Shown: piece after piece, positions 1,690-13,031 of the stretch
Layout of the letters: every line of letters starts with the position of its first letter
Position numbering within the stretch: the first letter of the stretch is position 1
Notes under the pieces: model-generated
The model's database searches: none
What the model saw: the letters and a program-made list of their open reading frames with translations, nothing else
Told to the model about the DNA's origin: nothing
Virus record (IMG/VR): IMGVR_UViG_2548876858_000019
DNA from: a virus
Taxonomy: Duplodnaviria; Heunggongvirae; Uroviricota; Caudoviricetes
Length of the DNA stretch: 13,031 nt
Reading direction: 5' to 3' (one strand)
Translations under genes and position numbers: made by a program

Positions 1690-1711
1690 TGGTGTCCCTG
1701 CAGGAATCGAA
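1690..1711 (-). repeat. att-type direct repeat: partial copy of a tRNA 3' end (T-loop to CCA)
   Basis: Minus strand reads TTCGATTCCTGCAGGGACACCA (T-loop GTTCGATTCC, acceptor-stem 3' half, ACCA); no tRNA 5' portion upstream, so it is a partial copy; the sequence resembles what I recall of the argW tRNA-Arg 3' end; integrase start sits at the opposite end of the element. Confidence 0.6.
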
Positions 1712-1761
1712 AATGTATTTATATCTATGTTTTATAAAGGTAATTTAAGTGGTTGTTTTGT

Positions 1762-1784
1762 TGATACCATCATGGATACCATCA
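1762..1784 (+). repeat. tandem direct repeat GATACCATCA x2, candidate integrase arm-type sites
   Basis: GATACCATCAtgGATACCATCA about 50 bp inside the element from the att core. Confidence 0.3.
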
Positions 1785-2124
1785 AACGATAAAAACATCT
1801 CATTAAGGCCATAGAGATCGGCCTATTCCGTCAGTTTCAATAATGAATAGTTGGATGAAAAAACGACGGGGCAGGGGGCTGGCAAATCTGCGAAAAGGTT
1901 GAAAAATGCGCAAAAAAGTTATCACACCCCACGCATTATACAATGCTGCTCGCAAACCAGCGCCAACTCTGGGAAGTCAGGGGGATACACCCTAAAGTAT
2001 TTTTTTCATTTTATGTATACCAGAATGGCTTTAAATCACTCACCATCCAGCGCTATAACCGGGTTTAACCGTGTATACCATCCCCCATGTGATATGACGT
2101 ATTCTCATTCATAAAACCCTTTAT

Positions 2125-2200
2125 TGTATCGAATTTGACACAATACCCGCCCGCAGTAATCAGACCGTCAAGCAAATATCGTTGTACTGTTCACGACACA
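2125..2200 (+). promoter_or_regulatory. two TGT-N12-ACA dyads (Ogr/Delta-box-like) upstream of the portal gene
   Basis: TTGTATCGAATTTGACACAA (2124-2143) and TTGTACTGTTCACGACACAC (2182-2201); each has exact TGT-N12-ACA spacing and shares 14-15 of 20 positions with the dyad upstream of the sid-like gene. Confidence 0.4.
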
Positions 2201-2236
2201 CCTGATCACTCAAGAATTGTTCACAGCGAGAAAAAT

Positions 2237-3262
2237 ATGGATAACCCGGACAAAACTCCCGTACCTGAGGTCACTGTAGCAACAGAACCGCAGCCCTCTG
2301 CAGAATGCTTCACCTTTGGCGATCCCATTCCGGTACTGGACCGGCGCGAGCTGCTTGATTATGTGGAGTGCGTACAGATTGATCGCTGGTATGAACCGCC
2401 GGTCAGTTTTGCCGGGCTGGCACGTACCTACCGCGCTGCCGTGCATCACAGTTCACCAATTGCTGTTAAGCGTGACATTCTCAGCAGCACCTTCATCCCA
2501 CACCGCTTGCTCAGCCAGCAGTCTTTCGCCCGTTTCGTTCAGGATTATCTGGTGTTTGGTAATGCTTATCTGGAAAAGCGCACCAACTGGCTGGGTGATG
2601 TCCTCTCACTGGAGCCAGCGCTGGCAAAGTATACCCGGCGCGGCGTTGACCTAGAATCCTACTGGTTTGTGAACTACGGCCTGACGATGCAGCCTTATGA
2701 GTTCACCAGAGGCAACATTTTTCATCTGATGGAGCCGGATATTAACCAAGAGATTTACGGGCTGCCCGGTTATCTCTCCGCCATTCCGTCAACCCTGCTC
2801 AACGAGTCCGCAACGCTGTTCCGTCGGAAATATTACATCAACGGCAGCCATGTAGGCTTCATCATGTACATGACCGACGCTGCGCAGAATCAGGAGGATG
2901 TGAACAACATCCGCAAGGCAATGAAAAGTGCCAAAGGACCGGGCAATTTTCGCAATCTCTTTATGTACTCACCCAATGGCAAAAAAGATGGCATCCAGAT
3001 CATCCCCCTATCCGAAGTTGCGGCGAAAGATGAGTTTCTGAACATCAAGAACGTGAGCCGTGATGACATGATGGCAGCGCACCGTGTGCCACCGCAGATG
3101 ATGGGAATCATGCCGAGTAACGTTGGGGGGTTTGGAGATGTAGAAAAAGCCAGCCGTGTTTTTGTTCGCAACGAACTGATGCCGCTACAGAAGCGACTGC
3201 AGGAACTGAACGACTGGTGTGGCGAGAAAATAATTAGTTTTGAACCTTATACACTTGAGTAA
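2237..3262 (+). CDS. phage portal protein, P2 Q / PBSX-type
   Basis: 341 aa from ATG 2237 (track ORF starts at TTG 2135; trimmed); portal-like clip motif RDDMMAAHRVPPQMMGI; length close to P2 Q as I recall it; ends at TAA 3260-3262 before a terminator. Confidence 0.7.
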   Translation: MDNPDKTPVPEVTVATEPQPSAECFTFGDPIPVLDRRELLDYVECVQIDRWYEPPVSFAGLARTYRAAVHHSSPIAVKRDILSSTFIPHRLLSQQSFARFVQDYLVFGNAYLEKRTNWLGDVLSLEPALAKYTRRGVDLESYWFVNYGLTMQPYEFTRGNIFHLMEPDINQEIYGLPGYLSAIPSTLLNESATLFRRKYYINGSHVGFIMYMTDAAQNQEDVNNIRKAMKSAKGPGNFRNLFMYSPNGKKDGIQIIPLSEVAAKDEFLNIKNVSRDDMMAAHRVPPQMMGIMPSNVGGFGDVEKASRVFVRNELMPLQKRLQELNDWCGEKIISFEPYTLE

Positions 3263-3263
3263 T

Positions 3264-3289
3264 AAAAAAGCCACTGAAGTGGCTTTTTT
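3264..3289. terminator. bidirectional rho-independent terminator between portal gene and gene Y
   Basis: AAAAAAGCCAC-TGAA-GTGGCTTTTTT: GC stem with 4-nt loop flanked by A6 and T6, so a U-run follows the hairpin on both strands; 1 bp after portal stop and 8 bp after Y stop. Confidence 0.65.
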
Positions 3290-3291
3290 AT

Positions 3292-4257
3292 TTAATCGGG
3301 AAGGTTACGTAAATCGATATATGAGAAAAATGCGGCACCTTTCTCAGTTAACTCGTATCGAAGATATCGATTTTCCATTATTGGCGTTGTTTTGAGTAGG
3401 CCATGGACCATCATTAACGTGCAAACATTTCTAACCAAAAAACCAGCTAAGTCAGTCGAATTTGATCTTAACCCAGAAAGAATAGTTCCTCTATACAGCA
3501 AAATGAGTCGCATTGCTGTTGTTTTAACTGGCTCTGGAGTTTCGGATAATTTTGTCGGGATCGTTAACTGTGTATTTTCAAATAGCTTATATATTTTACT
3601 GAACTCTTCCTCAGATGGTTTTTTTACTATAGCTTTACTTTCAGGAGAACGTGCAGCTCTGAGAAGTTCAACCTCAGATTTTAAAGCTTCATTTTCCTTC
3701 GTTAGTTTAGATATTTGTTCTATTAACACACTTGACTCTGATATTTCCTTTCCAGAAACCCACCCAAGGAGATTTCTCTCGACACCAATTTGAGGAAGTG
3801 TCTTATAAATTGATATTTGTATATCTTTAATATCCCGAAAAAATTCCACCGGATACCCCTTGACCTTTTGTTTGAAAGCTTCATATTTTGTCGGGTTATC
3901 TAATTCAAGAACTTCCTTACCAACTGTTTTAACTTTTTCATCTAGATATTCGTCATCAATGACTATCGAAAATAGAGGTTTGTTTGTACTTAAAGCATAA
4001 TCATATTCGAGCTCTGTATAGCAATAATCACTGCCGGGAGCAATCGTTCCATAACGCCCTCCCAGAATAAGGATGTAGATATCTGACTCATCTATCCAGC
4101 GCTTAATAATTTCTAACTGGCTTCTGTCTCCAGGCTTAAATAGCTCCATTCCCGCAGGTATATGCCCGGCAGTTAATATGGCACTTACCGCAGCTTGCCT
4201 TTCTTCAATGAGGTCTGTAAAAGTTGATGAAATGAAAACTTGAAATTTCCTATTCAT
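3292..4257 (-). CDS. DUF4062-like domain protein with coiled-coil and C-terminal domain of unknown function (candidate defence cargo)
   Basis: 321 aa from ATG 4255-4257; N-terminus MNRKFQVFISSTFTDLIEERQAAV...ILILGGRYGTIAPGSDYCYTELEYDYA fits the FISSTF/ER/GGRYG/TExEY signature I associate with DUF4062; central coiled-coil (ISKLTKENEALKSEVELLRAA); visibly AT-rich; terminators on both sides. Confidence 0.8.
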   Translation of the reverse strand: MNRKFQVFISSTFTDLIEERQAAVSAILTAGHIPAGMELFKPGDRSQLEIIKRWIDESDIYILILGGRYGTIAPGSDYCYTELEYDYALSTNKPLFSIVIDDEYLDEKVKTVGKEVLELDNPTKYEAFKQKVKGYPVEFFRDIKDIQISIYKTLPQIGVERNLLGWVSGKEISESSVLIEQISKLTKENEALKSEVELLRAARSPESKAIVKKPSEEEFSKIYKLFENTQLTIPTKLSETPEPVKTTAMRLILLYRGTILSGLRSNSTDLAGFLVRNVCTLMMVHGLLKTTPIMENRYLRYELTEKGAAFFSYIDLRNLPD

Positions 4258-4518
4258 TTTTTATCCATATAGAGTTATTGTCATCTAACATACCTACAAA
4301 ATGCTATAGGTAAATTTAAGTTGGTATTATTAGTCTTTTACTAGTATCTAATGCTGAAAAAGTTGATGAAAGAAAGACATTAGACGCAGATACCAACATC
4401 AGAGCATAATCATATGATATAGGTTAAAGCGTGTTCAAGACCGATTAACGTAAGTTCCCTAGATCTCCCCTCAGCGCGAGCAGCCCCGCCCGCCTGCCCG
4501 CTTCGCTTAACAGAATGG

Positions 4519-4632
4519 TTTTCATGCACCCCGTAAATCGCCTCAGGAGCCGCCACACAAGGGCTTTCACGTCAAAAATGATGCATGAGACTCATGCGTT
4601 TTCATGCGCCATAGACATGCACTCATGCGCTC
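4519..4632. repeat. cluster of CATGC-containing direct repeats (TTTTCATGC x2, ACTCATGCG x2, six CATGC cores)
   Basis: Seen at 4519-4527, 4599-4607 (TTTTCATGC) and 4589-4597, 4621-4629 (ACTCATGCG), plus further CATGC at 4583 and 4616; intergenic between Delta terminator and Y promoter region. Confidence 0.35.
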
Positions 4633-4656
4633 TCAGGCCAGCCAGGAAAAAGGCGT

Positions 4657-4683
4657 AAAAAATCCCGGTGCCGGGCCGGGATT
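4657..4683 (-). terminator. rho-independent terminator of the sid-delta operon
   Basis: AATCCCGG-(7 nt)-CCGGGATT hairpin 4661-4683, followed on the minus strand by TTTTTTACGCC; 21 bp downstream of the Delta stop. Confidence 0.6.
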
Positions 4684-4703
4684 AGGTAGGCGTTTTTTGC
4701 TAA

Positions 4704-4976
4704 TCAGACAGGGATTTGCTGGCGGCTTGATAACTTTGATGCAGAGCCATAGCGATTGAGCGTTTGCTGTTGTTTTTCCGGCATTTGTGCTTTGTCTGAT
4801 TCCTGTTCATTGCGCCGGGGCTTCATAATTATCTTATCCACACTTTCCAGAGCGGTAAATGTGCAGGAACATTCAAGATTCTGGCACTGATACCATGAGC
4901 GTTTAACCGACGGTGCTTCATAGGCGGTGGTTCTGGCGTGTGCAACGGTGCCGCATTCAGGACATTTCAGCGCCAT
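4704..4976 (-). CDS. Ogr/Delta-family zinc-finger late-gene transcription activator
   Basis: 90 aa, MALKCPECGTVAHARTTAY...YQCQNLECSCTF: C-x2-C...C-x4-C motif and overall pattern of P2 Ogr / P4 Delta; ATG overlaps the TGA of the upstream sid-like gene (ATGA). Confidence 0.85.
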   Translation of the reverse strand: MALKCPECGTVAHARTTAYEAPSVKRSWYQCQNLECSCTFTALESVDKIIMKPRRNEQESDKAQMPEKQQQTLNRYGSASKLSSRQQIPV

Positions 4977-5737
4977 CAGATACCCTCCATATCACGGTTA
5001 CGTTTCTGCAGCTCTTCACGTTCCTGACGGATCTTCATTTTGTGAAGGGCCGCCGGTGACGGGATTTTGCTTAAATCGACACGAGCCGCATAATCCGGCG
5101 CAACGCCCGCCAGTTTAAACACAGGGTCCAGTTCCGGCATCGCAGTGTTAGCAAGAGCCGGTTTGGTGATATGTTTGTGAATAAAGTCTTTCAGCAGTGT
5201 GTCCGGGTCATTAACTGAATTCACCACCCCCACAACGGCACTGGCTTCCCGCCCCATTGTGGTTTTGAGCAGGCTCAGTGTCTGGATTAACGCCTTACCA
5301 TGCGCCTGCATGAAGTCTTCCCAGATTTGCTTTGCGCGAATTTCCACAAGGGTGTTATGTGCGCTGATATACTGCCCGGCTAATTTCCCGGCTTCCTGCG
5401 GTAATAAGGCATTTTCGCTTTCCTGAGCTGCCAGCAGTTCATCAAAATCCTCAAGCGTTTCTCGTCCCAGCGCAATTTCCGTGCGCAGTTTTTTCATTTC
5501 CTTTGAGACTACGCCCTGACTTTCACGAAACAGCGTGCGCCACTCCTCATTCAGCGCGTTCGTCGTGGCTTCCATTTCAGCCCGGCGCTGGCGGATTGTC
5601 GCAATATTATCCGCTGCCGCTTTCTGCCGACGACGTGCTTCAAGCCATGCGCTTCTGGCTGTATTCAGGGTTTCCATTGCCTGCTGCGTTACAGCCGGAA
5701 AAGTGGAAAGGTTGTTATTCTCTGCGGTGTTGTTCAT
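4976..5737 (-). CDS. Sid/Psu-family protein (P4 capsid size determination-like; Psu-like not excluded)
   Basis: 253 aa, coiled-coil rich; segment AGQYISAHNTLVEIRAKQIWEDFMQAHGKALIQTL matches the Psu/Sid family pattern as I recall it; sits directly upstream of and coupled to delta as sid does in P4; AGGAGA Shine-Dalgarno before ATG 5735-5737. Confidence 0.65.
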   Translation of the reverse strand: MNNTAENNNLSTFPAVTQQAMETLNTARSAWLEARRRQKAAADNIATIRQRRAEMEATTNALNEEWRTLFRESQGVVSKEMKKLRTEIALGRETLEDFDELLAAQESENALLPQEAGKLAGQYISAHNTLVEIRAKQIWEDFMQAHGKALIQTLSLLKTTMGREASAVVGVVNSVNDPDTLLKDFIHKHITKPALANTAMPELDPVFKLAGVAPDYAARVDLSKIPSPAALHKMKIRQEREELQKRNRDMEGI

Positions 5738-5771
5738 GACTTCTCCTGCCGGGTTGGTTCGTTACGTCAAT

Positions 5772-5827
5772 TGTGTCGTGACTGACACAAGCGCACTATC
5801 GGCGCTCAGTGTGTGGTGGCTGGCACA
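5772..5827 (-). promoter_or_regulatory. Psid-like late promoter with two Delta-box dyads
   Basis: TGT-N12-ACA at 5772-5789 (within TTGTGTCGTGACTGACACAA) and at 5810-5827; centres 38 bp apart and about 43 and 81 bp upstream of the sid-like ATG, consistent with activator sites near -18 and -55. Confidence 0.55.
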
Positions 5828-5914
5828 ACGGGCGTTTGCGGTTATTCAGACGCGGCCATGACAGCCAGCCAGATAAAAATGCCTCTGTTTCAGCCTGCTT
5901 TATGTCCCGGATGC

Positions 5915-6110
5915 GGTGAAACAGGTGGAACAGGTGTTACAGCATTGTTTTGTAAAACATTTATATGCACATCACAGGTGAAACATCGCAGGTAACAAGG
6001 TGGAACAGCGGATCGGCTGGCGTTCCACCTGTTCCACCTCACTATTTCAGAAGGTGAAACAGGTTTAGCCCTTGTAAAATACGGGTGTTCCACCTGTTTC
6101 ACCTGTTACC
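5915..6110. repeat. iteron array, candidate replication origin / crr-like site
   Basis: At least nine copies of the 9-mer GGTG(A/G)AACA or its complement TGTT(C/T)CACC: plus orientation at 5915, 5924, 5977, 5999, 6053; minus orientation at 6021/6030, 6086, 6095, with tandem pairs; AT-rich stretch 5941-5970 in the middle; 28 bp downstream of the primase stop. Confidence 0.7.
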
Positions 6111-6137
6111 CTTAATAAATAAGACTCACGCAAAGCC

Positions 6138-8810
6138 TTAACCCGGCACCTCGCTGTTGAAGACATAGAGTCTGCGGGGATTCATCTCTGGCGGGCGAAT
6201 GGTTGTCTGCAGCTTGCCATCGGTGGAGGGCAGCAGGTATCCACGATCCGCGCACAGACGCGCCACCTTGCGCGGGTCAAATCCCCGGCAGATTTCTTTC
6301 CAGCCGGACGGCATGACGTAGAACGTGGTGACGGCCTCCGTGCCCTGCGCGGTACTGCCTTTCTCCACCCTGCGCCAGCCCACCATATTGCCGGGGCGGT
6401 TACGCTCGTCGTGCCAGTCAGCAAAGCGGCTGTACTGATTCGCGGTAAAGAAGCTGCGTACCTGCTCCAGTGCGGCAATATCTTCCTGATTGGCGGTGTG
6501 CCCGCGATCTTTCAGCCATGCGTTCAGGCAGACGCGGGTTGCCCGCAGCGCTTCACCCTCAGGCCAGCCGGTAATACCCAGCCGGGTTGCCAGCTCGCCC
6601 GCCATCGCCACCAGTGCAAAGCGGTTCACAGCCCGGCCTACCTGATTACCCGCATCTTTCGGGGTCAGGGCGGCTGTATATTCCTTCATCAGTGACTTTG
6701 CCTGTGCCGTCAGCCCGTTAAGGTCAGCGGTCAGGGCTTTCAGCCACTCCCTGAACGGCGAACCGTAGTAGCTGGACGTGGCCCACTCCAGATGTTCCGC
6801 CAGAGCCTTGCCGCTGTCGAAGCCGTGCAGCTCCTCAAATACGCCAAATTTCCCGGAATCGCTGGGGATCTGGATCATCCTGACTTCCATCCCGGCAAAG
6901 GTACGCTCACCGGCTTTTGCCGCATGTTCGGTCAGTGACAGCTCGCCGGTTGAAAAGAACAGCAGCCGCCACTGCTTACGGGTGCGCAGCTCACCGTCCG
7001 TACCGGCACGGCCCTTGCCCTGACCGTTTGCCAGCATGTAGGCGATATTACCCGCCTCGCGTCCGTCCACCTCCCGGATCTCATCGAGCATCATGGCGGC
7101 ATCGTTGCGGCGGCTGGCGCATCCCTCCAGCGCGTTGCCGGTTGCCCGCCACGTCTGCCAGTAATCAGGCCCGCCACAAACGGAGGTTGCCGCTTTCATG
7201 GTGGTGGTCTTACCGTCAGTCGATTCCCCCTTGAGGTGGTAGCCGCCGCCGTCCATCCCAACCAGCCGTAACAGGGGTGCAGCAAAGGCCAGACTGACGG
7301 CAAACGCCACGCGGGAGTTACCGGTGCAGTAACGGGAAACGTGCTCCCGCCATTCCTCCGTTGTACCTGACACACGGAAATCGCGCCCCTGCACGGAAGT
7401 GGTCTGGAGAATGACACCCTCTGCACCTTCACCGCTGACCTCATCCTGCAGGACGTAAACCTGACCATGCCAGCCAGTGCGGCTGACGCAGGTCACGCGG
7501 CGTTCCGGTTTACACAGCGAGATATATTCCATCAGGCGGGCGCGGGCCTCACCGGTGGTGCTGATATAGGACAGCCCGTTAACCAGCAGTACCCGGCGTA
7601 GTTCCTCACCGCTACCACTGAGCATTTCCATCGGCATCGCCCAGCGGCGGCGCTCTCCCCATGTATCTTCCCACTCCAGCAGTCGCCCGAAATTACCGCC
7701 ATCAGCATCGCAGGTGATTGCCGTCACGCGCAACGGGTTGCATATTTTGACGTTCTGGATCTCCGTCTCACCGTTGCGCTGTACCTGTTTTTCATACCAG
7801 AGATATTCCTGGGTAAGACGGAACCCGTGCGGCAACTGCGTGCGGCCTTCTCCGCACAGTACAAGACCGTTACGAAAGGCTTCACGGGCACGTGTAATAC
7901 CGTGCTCACGGTGGAAGTCATTCCAGTCAGCTTTAATTTCTCCCGGTGGCAGCGTCACCCAGCCACCGACTGATTTTGCCGCCCGTTCAGCAAAGGATCT
8001 GCCGGGATTCTCGCCCCCGTCCTGAAAATCGTTATCACCGGCGATGATAATTTTTACCTCAGGCCAGCGTGCCCGCAGCGCCTGTGCGACGTTGGGCAGG
8101 TTGCCCGCCGATATGGCCGCCACTACGCATCCGGCGGTGAGCTGGCTTACCGTCAGCGCCGTGGCGTAACCTTCGGTAATCACCACCTGTACCGGCGGTT
8201 CAGACGGTAACGGGCTGAGCGCCACAAACGCGCCTTTCATCGTGCTGCCGGGCAGTATGCTTTTTTCACCCGTCGGGGCGATAAGCTGTGCACCGGTCAC
8301 GGCTCCGGCGTTCGTCGTGAGCGGTAACAGCAGGGAACCGGCAGGGAAATCCTTACCACTGATATGCTGCACGCTCCCGGTCAGGGAGGCCGGGTATCCG
8401 GCGAACCCTTTTCCGGTCAGATAGGGGCTTTCTCCCGTGTGACTCTCTTTCATCAGGGCCGCCACGGTAAGGCTCATATCGCGTTTAGGGGCTTTTTGCC
8501 TGGCGGGCTTAACGGGCAGTTCCTGCACATCCGGCACATTAAGCACCTGCGCCACCTCCTGCGCTGCCTTTCTGATGCCGTAACCGGTTATGAGCTTAAC
8601 CAGATCCAGACCATCACCATTGCCGCACTGGCTGCAAATCCACGTCCCGCGCCCGTCGAGGTCATCGAGGCGGAAGCGATCCTTGCCCCCACATTTCGGG
8701 CAGGGACCGTGCCTGCCGTTTTCAGGTACATCAATACGCAGCATCTGCAGAATGACGGGCCATTTTCCCCGCGCTGCGGCTGAAATCTGCGTAACCGTCT
8801 GTGTTGTCAT
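6138..8810 (-). CDS. P4 alpha-type primase-helicase (zinc finger + Toprim + P-loop NTPase)
   Basis: 890 aa; N-terminal HGPCPKCGG...CSQCGNGDG zinc finger; Toprim-like ITEGYATALTV and IIAGDNDFQDGG; Walker A GESTDGKTT; GGGGGA Shine-Dalgarno; ATG overlaps the TGA of the upstream ORF. Confidence 0.85.
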   Translation of the reverse strand: MTTQTVTQISAAARGKWPVILQMLRIDVPENGRHGPCPKCGGKDRFRLDDLDGRGTWICSQCGNGDGLDLVKLITGYGIRKAAQEVAQVLNVPDVQELPVKPARQKAPKRDMSLTVAALMKESHTGESPYLTGKGFAGYPASLTGSVQHISGKDFPAGSLLLPLTTNAGAVTGAQLIAPTGEKSILPGSTMKGAFVALSPLPSEPPVQVVITEGYATALTVSQLTAGCVVAAISAGNLPNVAQALRARWPEVKIIIAGDNDFQDGGENPGRSFAERAAKSVGGWVTLPPGEIKADWNDFHREHGITRAREAFRNGLVLCGEGRTQLPHGFRLTQEYLWYEKQVQRNGETEIQNVKICNPLRVTAITCDADGGNFGRLLEWEDTWGERRRWAMPMEMLSGSGEELRRVLLVNGLSYISTTGEARARLMEYISLCKPERRVTCVSRTGWHGQVYVLQDEVSGEGAEGVILQTTSVQGRDFRVSGTTEEWREHVSRYCTGNSRVAFAVSLAFAAPLLRLVGMDGGGYHLKGESTDGKTTTMKAATSVCGGPDYWQTWRATGNALEGCASRRNDAAMMLDEIREVDGREAGNIAYMLANGQGKGRAGTDGELRTRKQWRLLFFSTGELSLTEHAAKAGERTFAGMEVRMIQIPSDSGKFGVFEELHGFDSGKALAEHLEWATSSYYGSPFREWLKALTADLNGLTAQAKSLMKEYTAALTPKDAGNQVGRAVNRFALVAMAGELATRLGITGWPEGEALRATRVCLNAWLKDRGHTANQEDIAALEQVRSFFTANQYSRFADWHDERNRPGNMVGWRRVEKGSTAQGTEAVTTFYVMPSGWKEICRGFDPRKVARLCADRGYLLPSTDGKLQTTIRPPEMNPRRLYVFNSEVPG

Positions 8811-9190
8811 ATTTCCCCCTGATACAGCGATACACCCGAGCTGCAGAAGTCATCAAATGCCGCCGGAAGTGTGCGGTACAGCTCCGCCATCACTTCACAG
8901 CCGCGCACAGTCAGTACCGGTGGCGCGGTCAGCAATGATGGCTCCAGCATGTCAGTCAGCAGCGCCAGTGCAGCCGCTGCTCCCTGTGCTTCGCCATATT
9001 CGTTAATCAGTGCGCACTCGATATGCAGGGCAATGGCCATTTCAATACGTTCAACCGTCAGGCTGTGCGGACCATAGTGATCGCAGCCGGTTTCGGTCAG
9101 CGCTTTCTGGCGCCAGGCCGATGCAATAGCCCGCCGGTAAAGCGCAGTGGTCATTTCTGCCGGAAAAATAGAAACCTGCGGCTGGTTCAT
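8807..9190 (-). CDS. hypothetical protein (replication-module small ORF)
   Basis: 127 aa; strong AAGGAGG Shine-Dalgarno 7 nt before ATG; ATGA overlaps at both ends with neighbouring ORFs; no recognisable motif. Confidence 0.5.
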   Translation of the reverse strand: MNQPQVSIFPAEMTTALYRRAIASAWRQKALTETGCDHYGPHSLTVERIEMAIALHIECALINEYGEAQGAAAALALLTDMLEPSLLTAPPVLTVRGCEVMAELYRTLPAAFDDFCSSGVSLYQGEI

Positions 9191-9471
9191 TGGGTGCCTC
9201 CTTCAATCAGTTCGCAACTGTGCGCAATATCCGTCAAATCTGCCCGCAGGTACTCCATCAGCGCGGCGATGCCTGGCGCACATCCTGCATCCAGCGTTCC
9301 GCCCTGCGAGGGGTATTCAGAAAAGAGAAGCTGCAACATGTCGCAGGCCTTTCTGGCGCGGTCCAGCTTTCCGAAACCGTCCTCTGACAACCCATACGCA
9401 AAAGCACCGCTATTGTGTTTTTCAGGCAAAGCGTGGCCCTGAGCACCGTTGTGCCCGTTTGAAATATTCAT
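9187..9471 (-). CDS. hypothetical protein (replication-module small ORF)
   Basis: 94 aa; ATG 9469-9471 with GGAG upstream; stop overlaps the next start (ATGA). Confidence 0.45.
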   Translation of the reverse strand: MNISNGHNGAQGHALPEKHNSGAFAYGLSEDGFGKLDRARKACDMLQLLFSEYPSQGGTLDAGCAPGIAALMEYLRADLTDIAHSCELIEGGTQ

Positions 9472-9502
9472 CGTGGATTACTCCGTTTTCAGCGGTGTTT
9501 TG

Positions 9503-9862
9503 TCAGAGAAACTTTGAATAGTGACTGTCGTCAGGTTCAGCAGAACGCCGTATGCTGCGCTCCCGCCAGCGGGTAAATACCACCGACGGATGCAGCGTCA
9601 GCGAGCCAGAGCCGCTACCCCCCGCGGGAGCTAGCGAAGGTTTAAAGAGCGGGGCATTAAACAGGCGCGTATACCGCTGCTCAAACCATGCCAGAGGGCA
9701 GGAAGAAAGCTTATTGTCGCTGTCATGACGAATCAGCACTTCACAGCTGAATTCAGGGTTAACCAGCGCCACGGAGGGCGAGGCTTCAGTTAATCTGATA
9801 ATCGTGACAGTCCAGCCACGCTCATGCTGCCAGCGTTCGCCGGGTTGCGGATAATTACGCAT
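9503..9862 (-). CDS. hypothetical protein
   Basis: Track ORF starts at TTG 9892; first ATG at 9860-9862 is preceded by GGAGGTG and overlaps the stop of the upstream small ORF (ATGCGTAA); C-terminal half is low complexity (AGGSGSGS). Confidence 0.4.
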   Translation of the reverse strand: MRNYPQPGERWQHERGWTVTIIRLTEASPSVALVNPEFSCEVLIRHDSDNKLSSCPLAWFEQRYTRLFNAPLFKPSLAPAGGSGSGSLTLHPSVVFTRWRERSIRRSAEPDDSHYSKFL

Positions 9863-10031
9863 GTTCACCTCCACAGGGAATGCGACCGGCAAAGCTCAGC
9901 ACATAGTCCGGGGCAAGTCTGCGCCGCGCTGAGCGCTCGTTATCTGCGGTGATCCTTAACATCACAGGACGGGCATTGCGTTGACTGCGGTTGATCGCCG
10001 CAAATAACCAGGTACACTTCTGTTTAGCCAT
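9855..10031 (-). CDS. hypothetical small basic protein (first gene of the leftward operon)
   Basis: Track ORF starts at GTG 10085; ATG 10029-10031 preceded by GAGGT gives 58 aa MAKQKCTWLFAAINRSQRNARPVMLRITADNERSARRRLAPDYV...; coupled to the next ORF. Confidence 0.35.
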   Translation of the reverse strand: MAKQKCTWLFAAINRSQRNARPVMLRITADNERSARRRLAPDYVLSFAGRIPCGGEHA

Positions 10032-10113
10032 TTTCGTTACCTCATCTAACGCTTTGGTCAGACGCCTCGGCAGTGCCGCAAACACTCCGGGGCGTTGCTA
10101 TTTTGATTCCTTG

Positions 10114-10169
10114 TGTGTAATGTGTCATTACACATAAGCACATTACAATAGGTGTAATTGACGTGTCAA
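10114..10169. promoter_or_regulatory. operator-like palindromes in a divergent promoter region
   Basis: Perfect inverted repeat TGTGTAATG-tgt-CATTACACA (10114-10134) and palindrome TTGACGTGTCAA (10158-10169) overlapping the GTG start of the ribbon-helix-helix gene; lies between the leftward small-ORF/primase operon and the rightward RHH gene. Confidence 0.45.
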
Positions 10170-10342
10170 CACACAAGAACGAAAGACGTGGTAATCCACC
10201 ATTCCAGTTCAGACTTGACCCTGAATTGCGTGAGTTAATGGAAGAAGCACAGCAGCAGGATGGTGATGAATCACTGGCTGCTTGGATCAAACGCATTATC
10301 CGCAAAGAGCTACAAAGTCGTGGTTCCGAACCAAAGAACTGA
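10163..10342 (+). CDS. putative ribbon-helix-helix (Arc/CopG-like) DNA-binding protein
   Basis: 59-aa frame from GTG 10163 to TGA 10340-10342, absent from the ORF track (below its 60-aa cutoff); VSTHKNERRGNPPFQFRLDPELRELMEEAQQQDGDESLAAWIKRIIRKEL has the basic N-terminus, short beta-strand and two helices typical of RHH regulators; AGGTG upstream; the antisense 121-aa track ORF looks non-coding. Confidence 0.45.
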   Translation: MSTHKNERRGNPPFQFRLDPELRELMEEAQQQDGDESLAAWIKRIIRKELQSRGSEPKN

Positions 10343-10352
10343 TAAATACATG

Positions 10353-10379
10353 GGGAAGATTTTCTTCTTTCCCATTTTT
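10353..10379 (+). terminator. possible terminator after the RHH gene
   Basis: Imperfect hairpin GGGAAGA-tttt-cTTCTTTCCC followed by ATTTTTC. Confidence 0.3.
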
Positions 10380-10393
10380 CTAAGGTCGTCATA

Positions 10394-10603
10394 TTATTTA
10401 TCAGCATCTGAGGATTGAGCTTTTACCCACTGTCTAATTTCTTGTGCATCGTAAACAGTTACCCGTTTTGAAATACGTGTGGATTTTGGAAATTCAGGAT
10501 TGTTTTTTTCCCAGCGCCAGAGAGTAACTGTGCTTACTTGCAAAAAGTCAGCAGTAGCCCGTGGGCGGGCATGCCCGGTGATAGGGTAAGTTTTTAATGT
10601 CAT
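10394..10603 (-). CDS. alpA: AlpA/Vis-family phage transcriptional regulator
   Basis: 69 aa; TADFLQVSTVTLWRWEKNNPEFPKSTRISKRVTVYDAQEIRQWV fits the AlpA-type helix-turn-helix pattern; typical size and position next to a P4-type integrase. Confidence 0.7.
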   Translation of the reverse strand: MTLKTYPITGHARPRATADFLQVSTVTLWRWEKNNPEFPKSTRISKRVTVYDAQEIRQWVKAQSSDADK

Positions 10604-10609
10604 GAAATT

Positions 10610-10637
10610 ACCTGCCGTGTTATGTAATGAACACGGC
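10610..10637. other. 10-bp-stem hairpin immediately upstream of the alpA start
   Basis: CTGCCGTGTT-(8 nt)-AACACGGCAG; on the minus strand its 3' arm runs into the alpA ribosome-binding site (CAGGTAATTTCATG). Confidence 0.4.
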
Positions 10638-10710
10638 AGATGATGGCAAGGTTAGGGCTAAATTATCAGTGCCACTATTTTGTTTTTATGATGGTATAAA
10701 ATATTACCAC

Positions 10711-11685
10711 TTAAAATCTTCCTGCTTTAGATGAGCTAAGACATTCTTTTATCTTATCTTTTCCAAGTTCAACCTTTGTTTTTGGATTGTTTCTTTCTGC
10801 CACGATTTTATCTGCCCACGCGTCAATAGTCAGTTTTCCTCGTTTTCCATTGCAAGATGCTGGGTCATTTAGTAACCAATAAATAGCTGCTTTGTACACT
10901 GCCTCTCTTTTTGTTGCTGATGCTTCAACATTACCATGCACTCTTCGGATGCTTTCGATGCTGGATACACCACCATTCACATAGCTGGGTAGCTCTTTGC
11001 CAACACCGTTATCTAATTTTTCTATTTGGTATCTTGTTAAATAGATATCATCCAGTGTTATATTTCCAATAATATTTTTATTAGATGGAGATACTAATCC
11101 CTCTATTGATGATAAGCCTTCGAAAGGGGACATTGCTAATATTACCCACTCATCACTGCCAAATGCAGCATTAGTGAATGGCATATTAGCTTCTTTAAAA
11201 GAAATATCATGTGCTAATAGCCTTGCTTTACCATATACCTTTAGTTCTTTGTATAATGAAGATGTTGGGCTGATGACACATATAGACCACAATCCAGAAA
11301 GTAAGATTAATGGGCTTTTTATATTTGGTTTGTTTTCTAAATGGTATATTTGTTTTGGAGGTGAAAATGGCTTATCTTCTGTATAATCAATATCGAATTT
11401 TGCTTTTGGTATGAAATGGCTTAATGCAGATTTATTACTATAGTTTAATACTCTGGGTGGGTACATGTTTTCCCAATCTTTAAAATCTCCACCTTTACGC
11501 ATCATCATTAGCGCAGCTTCGAAACCATTTAATTCTAAGCAAAATTCGATAATTCCAATTTGAGCAAAATGGATAAGGTCATCAATTTGGCAATTAAGTA
11601 GTTCAGCAGCTCGTTTTAGGGAGCAAAATTCCATTACAGGAATACTATTCCTTTCCCAAACATTTAATCGTGTATTATCGCTCAT
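10711..11685 (-). CDS. hypothetical protein X, AT-rich, between integrase and alpA
   Basis: Track ORF starts at TTG 11763 overlapping the int stop; ATG 11683-11685 has a good AGGTGA Shine-Dalgarno and gives 324 aa starting MSDNTRLNVWERNSIPVMEF; no motif I can name; visibly AT-rich. Confidence 0.6.
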   Translation of the reverse strand: MSDNTRLNVWERNSIPVMEFCSLKRAAELLNCQIDDLIHFAQIGIIEFCLELNGFEAALMMMRKGGDFKDWENMYPPRVLNYSNKSALSHFIPKAKFDIDYTEDKPFSPPKQIYHLENKPNIKSPLILLSGLWSICVISPTSSLYKELKVYGKARLLAHDISFKEANMPFTNAAFGSDEWVILAMSPFEGLSSIEGLVSPSNKNIIGNITLDDIYLTRYQIEKLDNGVGKELPSYVNGGVSSIESIRRVHGNVEASATKREAVYKAAIYWLLNDPASCNGKRGKLTIDAWADKIVAERNNPKTKVELGKDKIKECLSSSKAGRF

Positions 11686-11759
11686 CACGTCACCTGTATG
11701 CACATATGGTAAAATGGGGCGAATAGCAGACTTTACTACTATTAGCCATTTTCTTATTT

Positions 11760-13031
11760 TCAAACAACGCGTAGTTTTTTCATTTTATAGGGGGCAATAT
11801 ATCTATCAGTGTTAGCTTCAATATAATTAGACCACCATTGCATCATCCGACGACGTTCATGCATATGCTGAGCTAAGTGTACATAAGCGGCTCGCACTTC
11901 ATTTCGTTCTTGATGGCTCATTTGCCGTTCTACTGCATCCCTCGACCATAAGCCTGATTCTGTCAGGGCTGAGCACGCCATTGCCCTAAATCCATGAAGG
12001 CAAATGTCCACCTGCGTGTCGTACCCCATAATTCTTAATGACTTATTAACTGTGTTCTCACTCATTGGTTTGTAAGGGTTACTATCTCCGGGGAAAATAA
12101 GTTCATACTCACCACTTATTTTTTTAATAGCTTCGAGAACATCAATAGCTTCATTAGATAATGGAACATAATGAATACTGCCCATTTTTGCCCCACGCTC
12201 TGAATATTTTACCCCATCAATTCTTTTTCTTTGAGCAGGAATAGTCCACATTGCATTTTCAAAATTAATTTCCTCCCATCTTGCGTGTCTCAGTTCACTG
12301 GAGCGAACAAAAGTATGAAGAGAAAATAATACTGCCAGCTTAGTTAACGGCCTCCCTGTATAGCTATCAATTTTTGATATTAATTCGGGTAATCGTTCTA
12401 ACGGAAGTGCAGGGCGATGCTTTATTTTGGGGCTGGAAATTGCTCCTCTTAGATCATGGGTAGGATTGTATTCAACAATTCCACGCTGAATAGCGTACCG
12501 GAAAACGCTTGCAAGAGTAGTTTTCACTCTTCCTGTTGTTGCTCCAATTCCCTGATCACTCATCCTCACCAATAATGGCAACAGGTCACTTGTTTTTAAT
12601 GAGTCGATGGGTTTATTTCCGATATATGGGAAAATATGATTTTCCATTTCTCTTAAAATTTTAGTGCGGGTAATCTCTTTCCATGAGGGATGGCCTATAG
12701 AGCCTTTATGCCACTCTAAAGCGATTGTCTGGAATGTAGCAGAGGCGGGTTCTGTTGGCGCTGCTTTTTTAGATACTCTGGGATCAACACCGTCGGCTAA
12801 AAGTTGCCTTGCTTCATCTCTACGCTTACGGGCAAGTGCCAGCGAAACGTCTGGGAAAACGCCCAAAGCCAGCGTAGCTTGTTTGCCGTTAAATCTGTAG
12901 TTCATTCGCCATGCCTTGGTCCCGTTCTTTTTAACTAAAAGATACAGGCTTCCCCCATCCGTCAGTTTGTAGTCTGTTTCTTTGGGTTTAGCGTTTTCAA
13001 CTTTCTTGGGTGATAGCTCATTTAGTGCCAT
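11760..13031 (-). CDS. tyrosine recombinase, P4 / CP4-57 IntA-type integrase
   Basis: 423 aa; N-terminal arm-binding region (YKLTDGGSLYLLVKKNGTKAWRMNYRFNGK); catalytic-region HGFR (HxxR) and tyrosine in RAAYVHL; start codon is the last three bases of the window, facing the presumed tRNA. Confidence 0.9.
   Translation of the reverse strand: MALNELSPKKVENAKPKETDYKLTDGGSLYLLVKKNGTKAWRMNYRFNGKQATLALGVFPDVSLALARKRRDEARQLLADGVDPRVSKKAAPTEPASATFQTIALEWHKGSIGHPSWKEITRTKILREMENHIFPYIGNKPIDSLKTSDLLPLLVRMSDQGIGATTGRVKTTLASVFRYAIQRGIVEYNPTHDLRGAISSPKIKHRPALPLERLPELISKIDSYTGRPLTKLAVLFSLHTFVRSSELRHARWEEINFENAMWTIPAQRKRIDGVKYSERGAKMGSIHYVPLSNEAIDVLEAIKKISGEYELIFPGDSNPYKPMSENTVNKSLRIMGYDTQVDICLHGFRAMACSALTESGLWSRDAVERQMSHQERNEVRAAYVHLAQHMHERRRMMQWWSNYIEANTDRYIAPYKMKKLRVV

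Follow-up and report, generated by a model that had tools for sequence, protein, structure and literature searches.

Positions 1690-1784 of the 13,031-nucleotide stretch of viral DNA analysed here (IMG/VR record IMGVR_UViG_2548876858_000019; hereafter the window) are, with a probability that we put at about 0.9, the ordinary attL junction of an 11.5-kb P4-like satellite integrated in the 3' end of argW. Here we present a comparison of this junction with empty sites, with other copies of the satellite and with phage P4, together with a set of features for the element, a likely function for the tandem repeats that adjoin the junction, and an account of a one-base difference between the two copies of the core.

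Junction with argW

The plus strand at 1690-1711 reads TGGTGTCCCTGCAGGAATCGAA; its reverse complement, TTCGATTCCTGCAGGGACACCA, corresponds to the T-loop, the 3' strand of the T-stem, the 3' strand of the acceptor stem, the discriminator and the CCA of tRNA-Arg(CCU). Compared with positions 54-76 of argW the copy is one base short, with GGG and not GGGG in the acceptor stem. No complete tRNA was found in the window by ARAGORN, so that 1690-1711 is a fragment, and a search of the window with Rfam at gathering thresholds gave no matches. The features of the junction are as follows.

1690-1711, minus strand: 3' end of argW in displaced position, from the T-loop through the CCA and with GGG for GGGG; attL junction (similarity breaks at 1711 and at 1690)
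1690-1692, minus strand: host-derived CCA end (TGG on the plus strand), outside the duplicated core (attR reads ggtatTGTCCCC, with no TGG ahead of the core)
1693-1711: att core, present as a direct repeat of 19 bp, TGTCCCTGCAGGAATCGAA; in relatives the copy at attR is 20 bp long and has four C (comparison of attL and attR)

The junction is defined from both sides, by matches to empty sites that end at 1711 and by a match to a copy at another site that starts at 1690. The left flank of the window has a match in 2,657 of 5,426 complete genomes of E. coli. Among the 30 hits listed, the match ends at 1711 in 21, and a tRNA-Arg annotation lies under it in 17; the remaining listed hits end at 1703-1722, apart from EC1515, which continues through to 2200, and one hit that covers only 1-125. 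An E. coli with an unoccupied site (L002) shares the sequence of the window from cscB onwards, continues past 1711 into a 75-nt argW (anticodon CCT) and then reaches yfdC. In UTME-8, where the left flank is dsdC and not csc, the match extends exactly from 1690 to 13031, with a reported identity of 100.0% that is not a base-for-base figure. The original prediction had read 1690-1711 as a copy of the 3' end of an argW-like tRNA near a csc locus, lacking the rest of the gene, and as the distal att repeat of an element, and had named an empty site in a related strain as one comparison to make; these readings are borne out, the tRNA being tRNA-Arg with anticodon CCT in a gene that adjoins csc.

On the plus strand, attL in the window reads ...gggtatcTGG TGTCCCTGCAGGAATCGAA aatgtattt..., and attR in three relatives (L001, L004 and L005) reads ...gaaaaggtat TGTCCCCTGCAGGAATCGAA cctgcaatt..., continuing into argW. 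The duplicated core comprises tRNA positions 54-73, which occupy 19 bp at 1693-1711 and 20 bp at attR.

A remnant of a DUF4942 gene, 50 codons long, occupies 1328-1480 on the minus strand, in the interval from cscB to the tRNA fragment. Strains with an empty site have it too, and it probably goes back to an older island at argW.

Insertions are frequent in the argW region, as this remnant and the common tandem elements at argW indicate, and the tRNA fragment could likewise be left over from an older, unrelated insertion, in which case it would not mark the end of the satellite. We regard this as very improbable, because the element and the fragment travel together, the match in UTME-8 starting at 1690 beside a different host flank, because the arm boxes described below lie at the P4 distance from the fragment, and because the core-to-core distance is the size of P4.

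Right end of the element

The second core of the relatives lies inside argW, 187-188 bp past the start of int, and the distance from core to core is 11,526 bp (3004 to 14530 in L004), close to the 11.4 kb proposed originally. The integrase gene had been noted to start at the far end of the window, facing outward; it occupies 11760-13031 on the minus strand, and its start codon is formed by the last three bases. The window stops at this point and attR is known here from relatives alone, by which the second core would lie about 188 bp past position 13031. The limits of the satellite are fixed in this way, with one core at 1693-1711 and the other beyond the window end. Past 13031 we expect about 187 bp that contain an inverted and a tandem TACCATCA box, followed either by TGTCCCCTGCAGGAATCGAACC and argW or by the core and the torI-side end of a prophage.

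Ten complete genomes of E. coli carry the int of the window at an identity of at least 99.7%. Seven of them (Evo1, CP137705, PEC1003, UTME-8, CM194533, 4FM and AH21) have argW directly after the int side. In the other three (EC1515, EC974 and CM188746) TGTCCCCTGCAG comes after the int-side arm, and beyond it lies the torI end of another prophage, which in EC1515 is a 38.6-kb P22/Sf6-like IntS/TorI prophage with IntS beside a 75-nt argW. Such a tandem prophage separates the satellite from argW in three of the four complete genomes that have the full layout of the window. The index of assemblies lists an identical Int protein in 1,272 blocks. A reading of the 25 longest contigs showed ten distinct places, and at all ten int is 186-187 nt from argW, which is followed by yfdC. 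The expectation of a complete tRNA just right of 13031 agrees with the seven genomes and with the ten places of the identical Int, but not with the three genomes in which a prophage intervenes; judged from these relatives it is likely, though not certain, to be correct for the genome from which the window comes. As argW often carries several elements in tandem, the tRNA gene is not always directly beside the satellite integrase.

Searches for the excised attP gave no matches to the exact pattern in viral contigs; looser patterns matched there only a tandem junction (L008) and another attL (L048), and two metagenome scans delivered only tandem junctions or unrelated sequence. A reconstructed attP of 430 nt had no match in plasmid or phage collections and was matched in E. 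coli genomes only as two separate halves.

Classification and gene content

The satellite unit of 11,526 bp contains int, alpA, an alpha-like primase gene, delta, one sid/psu-like gene and a cos-like site; no separate psu gene was found in it. Its gene order is not that of P4; the element belongs to the broader P4-like family and is not P4 itself. Its genes and sites outside the attachment region are listed below.

2135-3262, plus strand: cargo; P2 gpQ-like portal gene, nearly full length (phrog_68, E = 4e-169, profile 11-339 of 344; Pfam Phage_portal)
3292-4257, minus strand: cargo; DUF4062 gene, which with the portal gene fills the variable region between cos and att (domain match)
4470-4499, minus strand: cos-like site, G/C-rich, downstream of delta (local alignment score with P4 cos of 44)
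4704-4976, minus strand: Ogr/Delta-like zinc-finger transactivator (PF04606, E = 1e-16)
4976-5737, minus strand: Sid/Psu-like capsid morphogenesis protein (phrog_6165, E = 8e-94; PF07455; 'phage capsid morphogenesis protein' in RefSeq)
6138-8810, minus strand: Alpha-like primase-helicase (zinc ribbon, Toprim, DUF927)
Listed in RefSeq relatives, minus strand: Icd-like and DUF5375 genes
10394-10603, minus strand: AlpA-family helix-turn-helix protein, candidate excision directionality factor or regulator (PF05930; phrog_66)
10711-11763, minus strand: gene of no named family (open reading frame)
11760-13031, minus strand: P4-family tyrosine integrase with an N-terminal arm-DNA-binding domain (PF13356, PF22022, PF00589; 50% identity to P4 Int)

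The cos-like site aligns with the P4 cos junction at a score of 44, against 21.5 +/- 3.5 (maximum 35) for shuffled sequences; the 19-mer of P4 cos does not occur, even when three mismatches are allowed, and BLAST of P4 against the window gave no matches at cos.

P4-like satellites are described as very common in Enterobacterales (PMC8628076), and they possess a hotspot of variable cargo adjacent to cos and a packaging limit of about 12 kb that is set by the small P4 capsid (PMC9122126). The 11,526-bp unit fits this capacity. Like the satellites described in these two studies, the element carries int, alpA, alpha, delta and a sid/psu-like gene, is integrated, measures about 11 kb and has variable cargo beside cos, whereas its cargo differs from theirs in including a nearly full-length P2 gpQ-like portal gene and in giving no PADLOC match to a defence system for either the portal or the DUF4062 gene. 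Both genes lie within the cores, as had been proposed for the portal gene and its neighbour, and this places them inside a mobile, packageable unit of 11.5 kb. Other cargo is found at the same cos-adjacent place in AH21 and Z1322HEC0003. Since the portal gene of P2 flanks the hotspot beside cos, the region with the portal and DUF4062 genes may have been acquired as one block from a helper phage.

The copies of the satellite in Evo1 and CP137705 have an additional segment of about 1.06 kb, located past the arm boxes and ahead of the portal gene (3391-4314 in L001, near window position 1950), which is annotated as IS903B in Evo1.

The closest comparison is with P4 (X51522). The two share an integrase of the same three-domain build, a core in the 3' part of a tRNA gene, a genome of about 11.5 kb and a cos-like site. 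They differ in the target, which is argW for the satellite and leuX for P4; in the core, which in P4 extends from position 57 through the CCA and in the satellite covers 54-73 without the CCA; and in the displaced copy, which in the satellite is one base short. In the satellite sid and delta have the orientation of alpha, att lies between cargo and int, and the sid/psu function is held in a single gene, all unlike P4; the departure in gene order counts against the main reading.

Integrase and arm-type boxes

The integrase has the PF13356 arm-DNA-binding domain at residues 6-91 (E = 6e-26) together with the central and catalytic domains, and shares 50% identity with P4 Int across 412 aa. Inward of the core, the far arm of the attachment site has the following features.

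1712-1762: A/T-rich spacer of the core-distal arm, variable in sequence and fixed in length (14 diverged arms aligned)
1763-1772, plus strand: first putative arm-type integrase-binding box, GATACCATCA (its 8-mer lies 52 nt from tRNA position 54, as in P4)
1775-1784, plus strand: second putative arm-type integrase-binding box, GATACCATCA, 12 bp after the first (P4 layout; arm alignment)
1785-1850: block inside the arm boxes (gataaaaacatctcattaaggccatagagatcggcctatt...), kept among the closer satellites, unlike the spacer on the other side of the boxes (arm alignment)

The word GATACCATCA has two exact copies, at 1763-1772 and 1775-1784, of which the first is separated from the core by 51 nt, and these copies are the tandem repeats that had been noticed about 50 bp inside the element. 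With at most one mismatch it has five matches in the window against 0.66 expected, a number reached by none of 200 shuffled sequences. Tandem Repeats Finder reported nothing for 1600-2000, two units of 12 bp scoring too low. Three more boxes lie upstream of int in the relatives L001 and L004, two of them exact copies and one degenerate, arranged as one inverted copy and a tandem pair.

In the P4 record X51522, features annotated as 'attP arm sequence repeat' surround the core, in the order inverted copy at the int start, tandem pair with a 12-bp period, core and second tandem pair, and one more copy lies inside int at 3621-3632. The five boxes of the satellite have the same pattern, as the positions show.

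Box consensus: P4 RTGCCCCC; satellite RTACCATC
Inverted box near the int start: P4 3917-3924; satellite 15557-15564 of L001
Int-side tandem pair, 12-bp period: P4 3944-3951 and 3956-3963; satellite 15583-15590 and 15595-15602 of L001
tRNA discriminator: P4 4081; satellite 15720 of L001
tRNA position 54: P4 4100; satellite 1711 of the window
Far-side tandem pair: P4 4153-4160 and 4165-4172; satellite 1764-1771 and 1776-1783 of the window
Int-side pair to discriminator (8-mer boxes): P4 117 nt; satellite 117 nt
tRNA position 54 to far pair: P4 52 nt; satellite 52 nt
Inverted box to int-side pair: P4 19 nt; satellite 18 nt

The distances to tRNA positions 73 and 54 are identical in the two elements. 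The box itself reads TACCATC in the satellite and TGCCCCC in P4, a difference that is expected of a diverged arm-binding domain in integrases of 50% identity. A satellite with an Int of 77% identity (L006) keeps the offsets of the boxes to within 1 nt, although the sequence of its arm has diverged. When 14 distinct diverged far arms, taken from E. coli, from other Enterobacterales and from metagenomes, are aligned, the core and the second box are invariant and the first box is nearly so; the A/T-rich spacer of about 52 nt varies in sequence and keeps its length. The conservation of the boxes across diverged arms supports a function for them. The original prediction gave the tandem repeats none; by position they are homologues of the P4 arm-type sites, and the two GATACCATCA boxes are most likely binding sites for the N-terminal domain of the satellite integrase, by which the tandem repeats acquire a likely function.

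Only two copies of the box, to which Int would bind, are visible in the window, and P4 itself also carries short direct repeats within crr and ori, in the vicinity of attP. The boxes might on these grounds bind a protein other than the integrase, such as a replication protein, for which they would serve as iterons, or the AlpA-like candidate for an excision factor or regulator. This is improbable, since the replication repeats of P4 are 8-mers of a different layout, whereas the pattern of the boxes and their distances to tRNA positions 73 and 54 reproduce the annotated arm repeats of P4 within 1 nt, the boxes lie on both sides of the core, and the integrase has an arm-binding domain.

A weak promoter-like match, to the consensus only, lies upstream of int (15592-15620 of L001, minus strand), with an extended -10 inside the int-side pair of boxes. 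The boxes proximal to int probably let Int repress its own promoter.

Integration and excision

The junctions, the duplication, the limits of the element and the pattern and conservation of the boxes are observed; the binding of Int, its self-regulation and the dependence on a helper are inferred from P4, and the place of strand exchange is a proposal as well. As a P4-family tyrosine recombinase, Int would have two DNA-binding specificities, with the N-terminal domain placed on the five arm boxes and the other domains on the core. It would pair the satellite attP with argW through the shared core of 19/20 bp (tRNA positions 54-73) and exchange strands there. Integration would displace the original 3' end of the tRNA gene, with its CCA, to the far side at 1690-1711, and the tRNA gene beside int would be rebuilt from satellite sequence. 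The boxes that flank the core would serve to build the recombination complex and would determine its direction, as they do in P4 and lambda. Excision would reverse integration in the presence of a P2-like helper, a dependence that is taken over from P4, probably with the help of the AlpA-like protein, and the 11.5-kb genome would then be packaged from cos.

One-base difference and missing CCA

The displaced core has three C (TGTCCCTGCAG, window 1693-1699) in every insertion of the satellite lineage examined, whatever its left partner, whereas four C are found in argW and in every attR examined (L001, L003-L006 and L038-L047). The insertions with a three-C attL are grouped below by their left partner or origin.

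csc flank: the window, L001, L003, L006
dsdC flank: L004, L005
Joined to the int-side arm of another element: L008/L034, L010-L014, L030
Other genera: L019, L026, L048

Some related elements (L022, L031 and others) have an attL with four C. A full-length argW with three C was found in none of the 5,426 complete genomes of E. coli. The one-base difference is not explained by conservative recombination alone, and it counts against the reading of 1690-1784 as an ordinary attL junction, as does the lack of an excised attP in the collections searched.

One possible explanation, to which we give slightly less than an even chance, is that strands are exchanged in or near the T-loop side of the core, that attP has four C, and that each integration, or an event after it, causes the 'damage' by which the C is lost. 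In all 14 diverged arms the block of identity has tRNA position 54 as its exact start, P4-like integrases reportedly use att sites with a start in the T-loop (bioRxiv 10.1101/2020.11.02.365908), and an attP with four C gives a calculated spacing of 189 nt between the arm pairs, the same as in P4. Satellites are moreover reported to leave deletions that start in the acceptor stem of displaced tRNA fragments, for which a role in addiction has been proposed (PMC10111431, where the 'damage' is attributed to Williams 2002). The deletion seen here is likewise in the acceptor stem of the displaced fragment and is consistent across independent insertions; the published cases differ in concerning tRNA genes for Pro, Thr, selenocysteine, Ser and Ile2, satellites of the PICI type and deletions of variable length, as opposed to argW, a P4-like satellite and always exactly one base. 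If the explanation is correct, excision would leave a crippled argW, with an addiction-like effect. Against it stand the conservative nature of tyrosine recombination, which should remove no base, the fact that the scar expected of excision, a full-length three-C argW, does not occur among the complete E. coli genomes, and the annotated core of P4, which stops at position 57. By our reading P4 has a mismatch to leuX at position 56; if so, P4 lacks a fully identical overlap in the T-loop.

Alternatively, attP may itself have three C, with exchange in the 6 bp beside the discriminator (TGTCCC, or GGGACA on the tRNA strand). The short C run of attL would then come from the element, and excision would restore argW. 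No loss of a base is needed in this case, three C in attL and four in attR are obtained with a csc or dsdC flank, the int-side arm of another element or another genus as left partner, and the lack of three-C scars in the complete E. coli genomes is accounted for. An exchange at the acceptor end is nevertheless the less probable of the two: it has just 6 bp of identity at its disposal, it sets the core-binding site of the integrase one base out of register between attP and attB, it offers no reason for an identity that ends exactly at the first base of the T-loop, and related elements with a four-C attL exist. It was favoured at first and was downgraded because of the T-loop-exact start of the identity, the one-base register shift and the published 'damage' phenomenon.

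The tRNA genes of E. coli normally encode the CCA. The rebuilt argW ends in GGGGACA followed by ATACC and does not encode it (15717-15725 in L001, 14527-14535 in L004, and L038-L047); in RefSeq it is annotated with 72 nt and not 75. The tRNA would thus depend on 3' trimming and on the CCA-adding enzyme, which carriers presumably need for tRNA-Arg(CCU). A survey of Klebsiella mentions two islands with a repeat that lacks the CCA, so that its absence is rare but not unprecedented.

It is conceivable, though in our view unlikely, that the one-base difference and the missing CCA together reflect an unusual recombination, be it a 6-bp exchange at the acceptor end with a deliberately different attP or an active damage of the displaced fragment. 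In the case of active damage, excision would cripple argW and make the host dependent on the satellite; in either case carriers would need the CCA-adding enzyme to make tRNA-Arg(CCU). The shortening by one base and the loss of the CCA bear on the questions of where P4-family integrases cut tRNA genes and whether satellites damage their target.

Tandem elements at argW

KplE1 (CPS-53) and related IntS/TorI prophages use the same tRNA gene, argW, and occur in tandem with the satellite, but they possess an integrase of a different family and different arm sites. The 16-nt core of KplE1 is CTGCAGGGGACACCAT (PMC2951348), which overlaps the core of the satellite by 12 bp. Unlike the satellite core it includes the CCA, and argW beside intS therefore stays 75 nt long.

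A prophage of the IntS/TorI type lies between satellite and argW in Z1322HEC0003 as well as in EC1515, EC974 and CM188746. The tandem joint is at TGTCCCCTGCAG, and the argW beside intS is again 75 nt long (14719-14740 in L003; 1-38890 in L037; 17291-17310 in L006). In further loci the int-side arm of another element abuts the core, which is followed by a far arm of the TACCATCA type (L008 at 6835; L010, L012, L013, L014, L030 and L034; L011 at 118); such junctions indicate tandem occupancy by two integrative elements. The arm boxes of the left element in L008 read TACCCCC, which points to two integrases of different arm specificity that act on one common core.
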